This document shows, in pieces, positions 4,771 to 63,575 of a stretch of 64,000 bases of DNA; positions within the stretch are counted from its first letter, which is position 1, and each line of letters opens with the position of its first letter. The notes under the pieces are model-generated. The model did no database searches. It saw nothing but the letters and a program-made list of their open reading frames with translations, and was not told the origin of the DNA. Source of the stretch: a bacterium (GTDB lineage Bacteria > JAMCPX01); contig JAJYLN010000004.1 in NCBI GenBank assembly GCA_021787665.1, forward strand, positions 68,415-132,414, read 5' to 3'. A program made the position numbers and the translations under genes.

Positions 4771-7700
4771 TCACTCCATCTGATCTTTTTCTATCAGGTC
4801 CACGTCCAGGGCCATACTCTTCAGTTCCCTCTTGAGCACATTGAAGGCTTCCGGTATTCCTGGCTCAAAATTGTGTTTCCCCTTCGTTATCGAGTCGAAG
4901 ATCCTCGTCCTACCCTGTATGTCGTCGGACTTAACCGTGATCATCTCTTGCAGCGAGTAGGCTGCCCCGTAAGCCTCGAACGCCCATACTTCCATCTCTC
5001 CGAGCCTCTGCCCTCCGAACTGGGCCTTTCCTCCGAGGGGCTGCTGGGTTACGAGAGAGTACGGGCCGACGGATCGTGCGTGTATCTTTTCCTCTACCAG
5101 GTGATGCAGTTTCATCATGTACATGACGCCGACCGTCACCTTTGCCCTAAACGGCTCGCCCGTCTTCCCGTCGTAGAGCACTATCTGCCCGTCCTCCGGC
5201 AAGTTTGAGATCTTCAGGAGTTCCTTTATCTCGTTCTCCGTGGCGCCGTTAAAGACCTCGGTCGTTACCCTGATGCCGTTCACCAGCCTCCCCGCATACT
5301 CGAGGAGCTCGCTGTCGCTGAGGTCATCCACGACCTTGACGATCCCTGTGTTGCTGTAAATGTCCTTAAGATAATCCCGCAGTTTTCCCGCGCTGTAGTT
5401 GTCATCGAGATACTCCTGGATCTGCTCACCCAGCTCCTTTGCGGCCCACCCGAGGTGCGTCTCGAGTATTTGGCCGACATTCAGCCTCGAAGGAACACCG
5501 AGCGGGTTCAGGATGATATCTATCGGTCTCCCGTCGGGCAGGAACGGCATGTCCTCGGCGGGCACGATTCTCGAAACAACTCCCTTGTTTCCGTGTCTGC
5601 CTGCCATCTTGTCGCCAGCGTACAGCTTCCGCTTCGTTGCAATAAAGACCTTCACCAGCTTGAAGACCCCTACGGGCAGCTCGTCGCCGCGCTTCAGCCT
5701 GTTTATCTTTTGATCGAAGATTGACTTGATCACATCCTTCTGCTCGATTGTCGAGTCGACGACCCGTCTTACCTTCTCCTGCAACTTGCTGCCTGCCATA
5801 AAATTGACCGACATCCATTTCTCCATCGGCAGCTTCGTGATGTGCTCGATGGTTATGGCGTCCCCGCGCTTGAGGGATATCTTCCTTCTCTCGTCCGAGA
5901 ACTTCTCTCCGACCTTCTCTCCTACGAGTAGCTTGCGCAGGTGCTCCTTCATCGTTTCCTCGATGATACCCAGCTCTTCTTCCTGATCGGCATGCAGCCG
6001 CACGAGTTCTTGGTCTTTCGTCCTGTCCTTGTCCGCCGAGGAGTTCTTCCTCGAAAAGATCCTGACGTCCACAACGGTGCCGTGGACACCCGGCTTTACC
6101 CGCAGGGACGTGTCCTTGACGTCCCCTGCCTTGTCCCCGAAGATCGCCTTGAGCAGCCTCTCCTCAGGTGTCGGCTGAGACTCACCCTTCGGTGTTACCT
6201 TCCCCACGAGTATATCACCCGCCTTGACCTCAGCGCCGATCCTGACAACGCCGTTCTCGTCCAGGTCCTTCAGGCTCTCCTCGCTGACATTGGGTATGTC
6301 CCTGGTTATCTCTTCTCTGCCGACCTTCAGTTCCCTGGCGGAGCACTCATACTCCTCGATGTGGATGGACGTAAAAATGTCTTCCTTGTTGATTCTCTCG
6401 CTCACGATGATCGAGTCCTCGTAGTTGTAACCGTTCCACGGCATAAAGGCCACGACGACATTCTTCCCGAGTGCCAGCTCTCCGTTAGCAACAGCCGCTC
6501 CGTCCGCAATCACATCTCCCTTTTTCACATGCTGTCCCGCCTTGACGATGGGCACCTGGTTCAGACACGTCCCCTGGTTCGACTTCTGGAACTTATGGAG
6601 ATTGTATATCTTAACGGTCGGTCCCTTGCTTCTGTTCATGTACTGGATAACGATCTTCTTGGCATCGACCGACGTCACGACACCGTCGTCCTCGGTCACG
6701 ACAACGACGCCCGAGTTCTTCGCAATGTAACCTTCGATCCCCGTGGCAACCAGCGGGGACTCCGTCTTTATGAGCGGCACCGCCTGTCTCTGCATGTTCG
6801 ATCCCATCAGTGCTCTGTTGGCGTCGTCGTGCTCGAGGAACGGTATCAGTGCTGCGGCAGCCGATACGAGCTGCACCGGAGAGACGTCCATGAGATCGAC
6901 TTCGTCACGGTGGACCATGAGGAACTCACCGTTCCTCCGCGCAGCGACATACTCCTCGATGATCTTTTTGTTGTGGTCGAGCGCCGTATTGGCCTGCGCT
7001 ATCGTTTTGTTCTCTTCATCGATCGCCGATACATACACGATCTCGTCGGTCGCGATGTTGTTTTTAACGACCCGGTAGGGCGTCCTGAGAAACCCGAACT
7101 CGTCCACCTTTGCGTAGGTGCTCATCGAAGCGATAAGACCGATGTTGGGTCCTTCCGGCGTCTCTATCGGACAGATTCTTCCGTAGTGGGTGGTATGGAC
7201 GTCCCTCACCTCGAAGCCTGCCCTCTCTCTGGTCAGTCCTCCCGGGCCGAGGGCAGATAGCCTCCTCTTGTGCGTGATCTCGGCAAGCGGGTTGGTCTGG
7301 TCCATGAACTGCGAAAGCTGGCTGCCTCCGAAAAACTCCTTGATCGCCGCGGTCACGGGCTTCGGGTTTATCAGCTCGGACGGCATGAGTGTCTGGAGAT
7401 CGTGGGTGAACTTTTCTTTTATCGTCTTCGCCATCCTCAAAAGACCAAGTTTGAATTGGTTTTCCAGGAGTTCCCCGACCGTCCTTACGCGCCGGTTGCT
7501 CAGGTGATCGATATCATCGACCTCTCCTTTGCCGTTCTTGAGGTCGAAGAGATATTTGACCGTATCAACGATGTCTTCCCTGTCCAGTATCGTAACGTCG
7601 AGGGGTATGTTCTTCCCGAGTCGGCTGTTTAGTTTCAGTCTGCCGACCCTCGTCAGGTTGTACTTCGCCTTTGAGAAGAACATGTCCTCATAGAAAGAGC

Positions 7701-47015: not shown

Positions 47016-47408
47016 ATGAAAGAAGGTTCTCGTATTAGAATCTTACGCTTCCTTACCATTGTTATGATGATAGGGTATGCGGCGGGGTGTGGGAGTAGTG
47101 CCAAGAGTTACGCCACTCATACGTATATTGTAGGTGTGTGGCCGGTCGGTATTGCTATAGACGCATCCGGAAATATCTGGGTTACAAGTTCTCATGATAA
47201 CACAATAACAAAATTAAGCCCAACAGGGGAAACCATTGGAGAGTATAATACTGCTGGTGAAACCCCATTTGGCATAGCGATAGACAGTGGGGGCAATGTA
47301 TGGGTTGCGAATAATGGTTTCCCCCAGGAGAGCAATACGGTAACCGAATTAGTCGGTGTTGCAAAAGGTCCCCAGTATTGGCCGTACAAAGGACCACAGT
47401 GGCCGTGA
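47016..47408 (+). CDS. Small lipoprotein with beta-propeller (SBBP/NHL-like) repeats, AT-rich gene
   Basis: 130-aa ORF with lipobox (AAGCGSS) and repeats of the type GIAIDASGNIWVTSSHDNTITKLSPTGE / GIAIDSGGNVWVAN; codon usage is visibly AT-richer than neighbouring genes and it is preceded by an AT-rich leader. Confidence 0.55.
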   Translation: MKEGSRIRILRFLTIVMMIGYAAGCGSSAKSYATHTYIVGVWPVGIAIDASGNIWVTSSHDNTITKLSPTGETIGEYNTAGETPFGIAIDSGGNVWVANNGFPQESNTVTELVGVAKGPQYWPYKGPQWP

Positions 47409-60339: not shown

Positions 60340-60700
60340 CTTTCGTGACGATGTCCAGCAGTTGCCTGCTGTTCACGGGCTTCGTCATAAAATAATCGCA
60401 TCCGCTATTGATGGCCCGCGCCTTGTCCTCCGGCCTGCCGTGCGAAGTTATGATGACGACCTTGATGTGCTTCAGATCGCTGTTGCTTTTGATGAACCGG
60501 CATATGGCATCGCCGTTCATCTCCGGCATGACGAGGTCGAGCAGCGCAACCCTGGGACGAAGGAGCTGGATCTTCTTCAGCGCTTCGGTGCCGGTTTTCG
60601 CCTTGATAATCTCGTAGCCCGTCTTCTTCAAAAGGATCTCCTCGAGCATAAGCACGGTGTCCATATCGTCTGCTATCACGAGCTTTTCTCTTTCCACCAT
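60332..60700 (-). CDS. Single-domain response regulator (CheY-like receiver)
   Basis: 122-aa ORF with receiver-domain acidic pocket (IADDMD), phospho-acceptor Asp context (ALLDLVMPEMNG) and conserved Lys (TKP). Confidence 0.8.
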   Translation of the reverse strand: MVEREKLVIADDMDTVLMLEEILLKKTGYEIIKAKTGTEALKKIQLLRPRVALLDLVMPEMNGDAICRFIKSNSDLKHIKVVIITSHGRPEDKARAINSGCDYFMTKPVNSRQLLDIVTKDA

Positions 60701-60912
60701 ACATCCTCCGGATGGAGGCGACGTTAGTATATTTCCCTCCGTCCTGCAACAGCTTTCTGCGGATCAAGGAAAAGGCGCTTCAGGGGTGAGGTGCCGGTTT
60801 ACATAAATAGAGACAGAGTTTTCATCGAAGAAGGGGGCAGTCGCGAGTAACAGAGTTTCCCACGATAAGGATGGATTCCCCTCTTGACAGGTGTATTTTA
60901 AAACAAAGAGAT

Positions 60913-60943
60913 CACTATAAAAAACAGGGCGGTACGTACGCCC
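60913..60943 (-). terminator. Rho-independent terminator downstream of the second beta-propeller-repeat gene
   Basis: Minus-strand RNA GGGCG-UACGUAC-CGCCC followed by UGUUUUUUAUAG, about 38 nt past the stop at 60981. Confidence 0.55.
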
Positions 60944-60980
60944 AGCTATTGTAATTTATTGTTTTATTGCATTTAAGATT

Positions 60981-61439
60981 TTATTCACCGCTATAAGGCA
61001 ATACCGGATTTCCGTATGGAAAATATTGTGGATTCGGTGCTACACCATCAACTTTGGTTACGGTAGGTGCGCCGCCAGCACATACTACCCATACATTCCC
61101 AGAATGATCTATAGCTATATAATCATCAGGGCTATCACCACCTCTGAGAGAACTGACGATATCATAAAATGTATTAATTATTGAACCTGATGAACTTAGC
61201 TCAATAAGATTACCAAAGTCTAATACCCATACATTGCCATTTGTGTCTATAGCTACCGATAACAGATAATCACCCAATGAAGTACCGCTTGTCACTGAGT
61301 ATATCCCAAGGATTACACCATTTGGACTCAGCTTAGATATCGTATTGCCATTTTTACCAGCTACCCACACATTACCAGAAGGATCTATAGCAATACTTCT
61401 CGGCATATTGGATACTGTGAAGGAACAAATAGGTGTCAT
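60981..61439 (-). CDS. Beta-propeller (SBBP/NHL-like) repeat protein without signal peptide, AT-rich gene; paralog of 47016..47408
   Basis: 152-aa ORF with repeats SIAIDPSGNVWVAGKNGNTISKLSPNG, VAIDTNGNVWVLD, IAIDHSGNVWVV and a C-terminus (GVAPNPQYFPYG) resembling the paralog (GVAKGPQYWPYKGPQWP); AT-rich codon usage. Confidence 0.5.
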   Translation of the reverse strand: MTPICSFTVSNMPRSIAIDPSGNVWVAGKNGNTISKLSPNGVILGIYSVTSGTSLGDYLLSVAIDTNGNVWVLDFGNLIELSSSGSIINTFYDIVSSLRGGDSPDDYIAIDHSGNVWVVCAGGAPTVTKVDGVAPNPQYFPYGNPVLPYSGE

Positions 61440-61609
61440 GTTTTGACATATGACTCTAAGGCCGTGATGGCGGTTGCCAAGCTCTTGTTCGCCGCGAGTT
61501 CAGCTTCGAATCGCACCAACACCTTGCGCAATGCACTGTAGTGCATCCCTCCAAATATCTTACCTGCTTCCCGATTGCTCAGATGGGTGTATTTGTACAC
61601 CAAATACAT
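61436..61609 (-). CDS. 57-aa mini-ORF resembling the DnaA C-terminal DNA-binding domain (domain IV); possibly a gene remnant
   Basis: Minus-strand ORF MYLVYKYTHLSNREAGKIFGGMHYSALRKVLVRFEAELAANKSLATAITALESYVKT; with in-frame upstream residues (LPRRTA) it matches the DnaA domain-IV pattern PRQ.AMYL-x15-FGG with identical spacing. Its TGA stop overlaps the ATG of the downstream gene (ATGA). Below the ORF-track cutoff. Confidence 0.35.
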   Translation of the reverse strand: MYLVYKYTHLSNREAGKIFGGMHYSALRKVLVRFEAELAANKSLATAITALESYVKT

Positions 61610-61861
61610 CGCAGTCCTCCGAGGTAGGTTAGCCCTCAGGTTCCTGTTATAAATAGAGTCCTGGCCAACACCGTCAGGTATGCATCCTTGTCTACCAGAA
61701 TCGCTTTGTACCTACCCCGGAATAGGTGCCCAATCGGGTCATGACACCGATTAAAATACAACCACCCTTATGTCTTACCAAATCAAAAGTCAAACCGTAT
61801 AGAACTCTACAAGTTAAACGGGGGTTGTCTTCTGCAGGAGAAGGAATCCGGAAAGGGGCAC

Positions 61862-61890
61862 AAAAAGAGGGCGGTCGGATGACCGCCCTC
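61862..61890 (-). terminator. Rho-independent terminator downstream of groEL
   Basis: Minus-strand RNA GAGGGCGGUC-AUCC-GACCGCCCUC (perfect 10-bp stem) followed by UUUUUG, about 30 nt past the groEL stop. Confidence 0.7.
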
Positions 61891-61922
61891 GATTTCGAAC
61901 AAAGTTGTGTATTTGTTGTGCC

Positions 61923-63575
<1,653 letters not shown>

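Follow-up and report, generated by a model that had tools for sequence, protein, structure and literature searches.

The stretch of DNA analysed here, which we call the window, comprises 64,000 nucleotides of contig JAJYLN010000004.1 (assembly GCA_021787665.1, a bacterium of the lineage JAMCPX01) and carries, near its end, a small open reading frame (ORF) of the minus strand whose product resembles the C-terminal DNA-binding domain of DnaA. This 57-codon mini-ORF (61436..61609, minus strand; 57 amino acids starting MYLVYKYTHLSNREAGKIFGGMHYSALRKV in the ORF list and its translation) is present exactly as quoted in an earlier examination made from the letters without database searches (the sequence-only reading). 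In the direction of its transcription, the locus is limited upstream by the intrinsic terminator of groEL (61867..61890, minus strand), made of a 10-bp stem with 8 GC pairs and a T-run, and then contains a fragment of an IS200-like transposase, the mini-ORF, a terminal inverted repeat (TIR) and an AT-rich ORF of 152 codons with NHL-type repeats (60981..61439, minus strand). The results described below concern the relation of the segment between the transposase fragment and the TIR to TIRtrons, the elements formed by tyrosine transposase genes with flanking TIRs (TIRYTs; PMC3733652).

The frame of the mini-ORF contains 34 more open codons 5' of its ATG, hence 91 open codons in all, and the DnaA-like motif NLPRRTAMYLV of the extended translation starts 5' of that ATG. 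Comparison of the 76-78 amino acid conceptual translation with protein family profiles revealed a match to Bac_DnaA_C (PF08299), the DnaA domain IV model (E=4e-6, 27.2 bits), restricted to positions 24-61 of the 69 of the profile, and a match to TIGR00362, the NCBIfam DnaA equivalog, over its last ~65 positions (E=1.4e-5). The DnaA domain IV signature noticed in the sequence-only reading is therefore real, and the profile search that it had proposed, with the upstream codons included, did produce a Bac_DnaA_C match, although one that scores below the Pfam gathering score of 31.5 bits. The AlphaFold2 model of the 78-residue conceptual translation, computed with the family alignment, predicts a well-folded helical bundle (predicted local distance difference test, pLDDT, 89.6), whose best match in the PDB is the DnaA domain IV chain 1j1v_A (template modelling score, TM, 0.82; root-mean-square deviation 1.9 Å; 75 columns), 3pvp being matched with a TM of 0.83. 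In addition, the profile of the relatives matched DnaA chains of the PDB at E=4e-18 to 5e-14; with the single 76-residue sequence, phmmer matched no PDB sequence, and detection depended on the family profile and on the fold search.

The similarity to DnaA domain IV (PF08299; 1j1v, 3pvp, 8btg) thus lies in the helical helix-turn-helix (HTH) fold, in the homology at the level of the family profile and in the AMYL and FGG landmarks. By contrast, the locus lacks DnaA domains I-III as well as the first ~23 positions of the domain IV profile, and its recognition helix reads MHYSALRK instead of RDHTTVIHA. The segment that includes this helix is GGMHYSALRK in the window and GGihySaVsKA in the consensus of the relatives described below, compared to GGRDHTTVIHA in Bacillus subtilis DnaA. 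The HTH tail is a true homolog of DnaA domain IV, yet it is a member of a transposase family. The product defined by the ATG corresponds only to residues 22-78 of the 78-residue model: it begins halfway through helix 2, so that helix 1 and one half of helix 2 are absent.

Homologs were collected with phmmer, the HTH translation being compared exhaustively to 1.84 billion cluster representatives (E<=1e-3). Nearly all of the 93 matches align at the extreme C-terminus of the matched protein, the best being P0004 (E=2.5e-30, 77% identity; 77% amino acid identity over 78 residues by tblastn). The long matches, of 256-334 amino acids, are composed of a Y1_Tnp domain (PF01797, IS200-like HUH) followed by Bac_DnaA_C, as in P0021 (322 amino acids), P0023 (326), P0072 (334) and P0040 (266). 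When the window translation was aligned with 92 matches, Bac_DnaA_C was detected in 80 of these 93 sequences, Y1_Tnp in 7 and the DnaA ATPase domain (Bac_DnaA, PF00308) in a single one. The genomic surroundings of the nearest relatives are unrelated to one another, which is what a mobile element would lead one to expect. Word-indexed searches with the 76-residue HTH and a 43-residue Y1 fragment recovered only the ORF itself and two 67-residue fragments, a scan of the genome contigs with the HTH recovered only one distant locus (41% identity), and a tblastn comparison of the fragments with the entire window detected no second TIRYT copy. The exact 57-residue product was called on 3 contigs, all of the same organism. 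Two of the matched proteins, P0038 (673 amino acids) and P0059 (534 amino acids), each contain five separate matches to the HTH query, apparently tandem arrays of DnaA-domain-IV-like HTH units.

The family to which these proteins belong has already been described. In Quentin et al. 2018 (PMC6006769), the TnpA_REP-like Y1 transposases of subclass 2.1.2 are reported to end in a Bac_DnaA_C or HTH_23/28 domain; the same study treats subclass 2.1 as equivalent to the TIRYTs that Di Nocera et al. described in 2013, and maps group 1 of the RAYTs of Bertels et al. 2017 onto this TIRYT-type group. Many TIRs of TIRtrons share the sequence GGGGWSAS and some overlap the 3' end of the gene, an arrangement termed 3'ov (PMC3733652). 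The sequence-only reading regarded stand-alone DnaA-domain-IV proteins as poorly described; this has no bearing here, since the association of Y1 with Bac_DnaA_C has been reported in both studies (PMC6006769, PMC3733652).

The Y1_Tnp fragment of the window (61660..61761, minus strand) encodes 33 residues, LYFNRCHDPIGHLFRGRYKAILVDKDAYLTVLAR, in another frame than the mini-ORF. In full-length relatives, their counterparts are residues 86-118. By tblastn, the identity reaches 73% with this segment of P0023 and 64% with P0021, and the identities to P0002 and to P0003, which carries PF01797, are 78% and 71%, respectively. The Y1 fragment and the HTH region adjoin each other in the proper order and orientation. 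The fragment ends with LAR, just before the position of the Y---NP motif (YVHLNP in P0023) that defines the catalytic tyrosine of class 2 (PMC6006769), and the frame then continues as TLFITGT followed by a stop. Its GHLFRGRYKAILVDKDAYL segment is the conserved segment preceding the class-2 Y1 catalytic helix, a feature common to the IS200/IS605 TnpA and the RAYT/TnpA_REP proteins (PF01797). These other systems differ in using subterminal hairpins or repetitive extragenic palindromic (REP) sequences and in having no DnaA-like HTH, whereas the window presents a plain TIR end and a deleted catalytic core.

Nothing equivalent to residues 1-85, where the HUH motif lies (NHYHL, ~57-61 of P0023), was found in any of the three frames or by tblastn, and none of residues ~119-249, which include the catalytic Y---NP motif, was found in any frame upstream. 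The window copy is thus devoid of ~215 of ~325 codons, namely the N-terminal 85 and ~130 internal ones. At the junction of the Y1 (frame 2) and HTH (frame 1) segments (61660..61676, minus strand; ACGGTGTTGGCCAGG), the two homologies overlap by ~12-16 nt: the tblastn segments overlap over 61660-61672, and the DNA homology to the related element L002 starts at 61674-61676. This overlap suggests that a microhomology-mediated deletion may have removed the ~130 codons and shifted the frame as well. Downstream of the junction, the DNA of 61432..61674 (minus strand) is homologous to the 3' end of related TIRtrons, including the HTH-coding part and the right TIR; the blastn alignment with L002 runs from 61674 to 61432 with 83.5% identity over 243 nt and stops exactly at the tip of the TIR.

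The right TIR is a 23-nt sequence, GGTGTCATGTTTTGACATATGAC on the plus strand (61432..61454), that overlaps the stop codon of the mini-ORF and holds the ATG of the downstream ORF. A search of the 64 kb with the TIR consensus GGTGTCAGGTCTTGACATnTGAC gave this single match, with 2 mismatches, compared to 0 matches in 100 shuffles, and its tip, GGTGTCAG, fits the published GGGGWSAS at 7 of 8 positions. Neither in the window nor, as noted previously, in the family does the TIR resemble a DnaA box (PMC6006769). The same 23 nt stand at both ends of three related elements, L002, L085 and L086, whose flanks are unrelated beyond GGTGTC and in which the right copy overlaps the stop codon. L086 is full length (326 amino acids; TIR arms 108-136 and 1118-1146), L002 is internally deleted (true ORF of 199 amino acids; arms 5891-5922 and 6534-6565) and L085 is a mini-element of ~257 bp with a 65-residue fusion ORF (arms 1717-1742 and 1951-1976). 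It should be noted that the true start of P0004, the protein of L002, was missed by the gene caller, the real ORF of 199 amino acids beginning MGRQLRIEYPG. The mini-element of L085 (1719..1974) resembles a miniature inverted-repeat transposable element (MITE) with both 23-nt TIRs intact, and its protein, P0006, consists of the first 25 transposase codons and the last 40 HTH codons, joined at a shared GKIF microhomology.

The presence of a Y1 fragment and of a TIR within 330 nt bears on the origin of the mini-ORF. The resemblance to DnaA domain IV in sequence and fold would also be explained if the ORF descended from a genuine dnaA paralog, or from a plasmid or prophage initiator related to DnaA. 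However, the 93 nearest relatives are C-termini and fragments of TIRYTs, with the AAA+ domain of DnaA in one only, the ORF is flanked by the Y1_Tnp fragment and the TIR, the recognition helix departs from that of DnaA, and neither a Bac_DnaA (PF00308) region nor any other AAA+ remnant could be detected in the ORF list, in nearby ORFs or in the three upstream frames. A dnaA-like ancestry is accordingly a reading to which we attach next to no likelihood. The sequence-only reading was correct in stating that the rest of DnaA is absent, and its suggestion that the ORF could be a remnant holds; the parent was not a DnaA-like gene but a TIRYT-type Y1 transposase.

Taken together, these results lead us to conclude, with a probability of about 0.9, that 61432..61761 holds what is left of a TIRtron copy that has decayed and can no longer move, in other words an ordinary relic containing a transposase pseudogene rather than a novel protein of replication or regulation. 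The likeness to the TIRYT/TIRtron system resides in the order of the Y1_Tnp fragment and the DnaA-like HTH, in the homologous C-terminal HTH, in the TIR overlapping the 3' end of the gene and in the dispersed copies; the difference is that the window copy has lost the HUH and Y---NP motifs, ~215 of ~325 codons, the left TIR and the promoter, which makes it a dead relic. An intact TIRtron comprises ~23-nt TIRs around one ~325-residue TIRYT protein, whose Y1 domain (HUH motif and Y---NP tyrosine) would cut and rejoin single-stranded DNA and whose DnaA-type HTH presumably positions the protein on the ends of the element. A first deletion would have removed the left TIR with its promoter and codons 1-85 with the HUH motif, and a second one, probably by recombination across a short microhomology, ~130 internal codons with the catalytic tyrosine, shifting the frame. 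Three pieces of the element survive, namely 33 residues of Y1, the ~78 codons at the end of the HTH domain and the right TIR. The mini-ORF (61436..61609, minus strand) is no other than the in-frame tail of the C-terminal DnaA-domain-IV-like HTH of the transposase, read from an internal methionine.

Internal-deletion derivatives are frequent in the family and arose independently (P0004 in L002, P0006 in L085, P0013 and P0016), those of L085 and L002 being internally deleted in the manner of the window copy. These recurrent deletions illustrate how TIRtrons decay: as the right TIR overlaps the 3' HTH codons, these are spared. In comparison with MITE-like non-autonomous derivatives, the window copy keeps only one TIR and should not be mobilisable, even in trans. 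Indeed, only the right one of the two ends of a TIRtron is present: a search with the TIR consensus allowing 3 mismatches found no left TIR in the window.

A candidate for a substitute left end was nevertheless considered. A 13-nt inverted repeat, AATAGGTGTCATG / CATGACACCGATT, of 92% complementarity (61428..61440 versus 61740..61752) brackets ~320 nt, and true mini-derivatives with both TIRs exist, such as the ~257-bp element of L085, so that the locus could be viewed as a MITE-like element, still mobilisable, with its right end at the TIR of 61432 and its left end at 61740..61752. Against this, an inverted repeat of this quality was reached in 10 of 500 shuffles, the match extends over just 9-10 nt at the start of the 23-nt TIR, and the arm lies inside the coding remnant of Y1 (NRCHD, whose Cys is Lys or Arg in most aligned relatives), with the Y1 homology (YFN) extending upstream of it; furthermore, no other copies occur in the window. 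The 61740..61752 arm was rejected as a left TIR, being marginal and probably due to chance, and we regard a mobilisable element at this locus as very improbable.

Four observations weigh against the interpretation as a dead TIRtron copy or limit its reach. First, the left boundary of the relic is not marked by homology, since no similarity to the three related left ends exists upstream of 61761: blastn to L002, L085 and L086 gave no match upstream of 61731, and alignment of the L002 left end to 61640-61900 scored 27, compared to 24±4 in shuffles, which is not significant. Second, the pairwise dN/dS values among the window, L002 and L085 copies are low, 0.15-0.28, values that mostly reflect evolution before the decay, the pre-decay and post-decay parts being inseparable and the decay undated. 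Third, the open frame of 91 codons, together with a good Shine-Dalgarno-like motif and an ATG, makes translation conceivable from the sequence alone. Fourth, a scan of metagenomes with the response regulator encoded next to the locus recovered two orthologs, L005 and L006 (82-84% identity), neither of which is near groEL, the GH38 alpha-mannosidase, the mini-ORF or the NHL ORF; these loci not being syntenic, no empty or intact orthologous site is at hand to date the insertion. Gene order around the locus is not conserved among the available relatives.

Upstream of the Y1 fragment and up to the groEL terminator, ~105 nt (61762..61866, minus strand) have no detectable similarity to the left ends of TIRtrons or to anything else tested, and could be either native intergenic DNA or a deletion scar.

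The third of these points raises the question of a functional mini-HTH. The truncated HTH might be a small protein that binds TIRs and inhibits TIRYT transposition in trans, as truncated transposases do elsewhere, or a domesticated regulator co-expressed with the NHL-repeat ORF. Arguing for such a role are the open frame, the ATG and a GGAGG situated 6 nt 5' of it, the predicted folding of the 78-residue translation into a helical bundle, and the fact that the independent derivatives P0006, P0013 and P0016 also keep an ATG-initiated C-terminal HTH. However, the helical bundle was modelled for the extended translation, while the ATG-defined product lacks its first helix and half of the second. 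The GGAGG is made of the letters of the conserved P-R-R codons, and an identical GGAGG-N6-ATG is present within the intact-frame relative L002; the motif is seen inside intact genes too because the conserved Pro-Arg-Arg codons encode GGAGG, and that of the mini-ORF is fortuitous, a by-product of the codons. As to the derivatives that keep the HTH, their recovery is an ascertainment effect of the HTH query, and remnants that bear a TIR must keep these codons. Moreover, there is no other TIR or TIRYT copy within the 64 kb on which such a protein could act.

The transcription signals are also unfavourable to a functional mini-HTH. No promoter-like site was found between the groEL terminator (61890..61867) and the mini-ORF, and this terminator, a strong one lying 260 nt upstream, would be expected from its sequence to shield the relic from transcripts of groEL. 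Intact left ends contain a promoter-like TTGACA-16/17-TAGTAT, with its -35 within the TIR and its -10 ending 6-7 nt before the ATG (L002 5918..5953, L085 1738..1772), which suggests that the transposase mRNA of intact elements may be leaderless or near-leaderless; this left-end segment is absent from the window copy. Considering these elements, a functional role of the truncated HTH appears very unlikely, and we infer that the relic is neither expressed nor functional. The proposal of a stand-alone small DNA-binding protein, translationally coupled to the downstream gene and co-expressed with it, is not supported, the first third of the domain being missing, the promoter and left end gone and the downstream ATG lying in the TIR.

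The NHL-repeat ORF itself (60981..61439, minus strand) has a GC content of 0.37-0.41 compared to ~0.58 nearby, and encodes three blades similar to those of NHL proteins and of Vgb lyase, with a C-terminal PQYFPYG. It matches the NHL (PF01436; 32.1 bits for a cut-off of 20), Reg_prop (30.4; 20.4) and SGL (30.4; 26.3) models of Pfam, SBBP repeats being likewise matched above their cut-off, and its homologs belong to the same repeat and propeller families, including NHL, SGL and Vgb_lyase. The beta-propeller-type repeats attributed to this gene by the sequence-only reading were thus recovered. The canonical NHL propeller has six blades. The 152 residues contain three IAID..GNVWV blades only, too few to close a canonical propeller alone. 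No signal peptide was detected in the product, and the gene predictions of the ENA contig do not include this ORF. A hairpin with a T-run resembling an intrinsic terminator lies 3' of the ORF (60927..60943, minus strand), and a scan of 60700-62000 with Rfam gave no match at E<=1.

The ATGA overlap between the stop codon of the mini-ORF and the start codon of the NHL-repeat ORF exists as had been described. The first three codons of the latter are within the TIR, and its ATG (61439..61437) differs from the canonical TIR sequence, CCTGACACC being replaced by CATGACACC in the window. The ATG was created by a substitution in the TIR, so the ATGA overlap is accidental and was not selected as a coupling device; translational coupling of the two ORFs is not supported. 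Homology of the NHL-repeat ORF to its relatives begins at residues ~8-13, and P0103 starts with MATSIAIDPSGNVWV, which corresponds to Met12 of the window ORF (ATG at 61406..61404). The most likely interpretation is that the NHL-repeat ORF either has lost its 5' part or begins at Met12, and that it simply lies next to the relic. The locus shows how mutation of a TIR can provide an adjacent gene fragment with a spurious start codon.

A promoter-like TTGGCA-16-TAGAGT lies in the 3' end of the mini-ORF (61453..61480, minus strand; a consensus match only) and faces out through the TIR to the NHL-repeat ORF. The same sequence is present in L085 (1925..1952, plus strand), in the last HTH codons just inside the right TIR, and shuffled sequences contain at least as many such sites as the region does. 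One may speculate that HTH-only remnants of TIRtrons have been kept as TIR-binding dampers of transposition or as co-opted regulators, and that this outward site and the TIR-borne ATG drive a near-leaderless transcript of the truncated NHL gene; if so, such remnants would damp transposition in trans or act as small regulators. We consider this combined scenario a long shot.

The family being known already, the window adds a dead copy and poses no new biological question. For annotation, short ORFs with a sub-threshold Bac_DnaA_C match located far from an origin should be checked for flanking Y1_Tnp fragments and for inverted repeats of the GGTGTCAGG type before they are annotated as DnaA-like.

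A paralog of the NHL-repeat ORF, of 130 amino acids and 36% identity, is encoded elsewhere in the window (47016..47408, plus strand). It possesses a signal peptide of the lipoprotein type and the same C-terminal tail, GPQYWPYKGPQWP, and is also located in an islet of low GC content (0.34-0.47, the genome being at ~0.6). It seems that genes for small NHL-like proteins with two to three blades form AT-rich islets in this genome.

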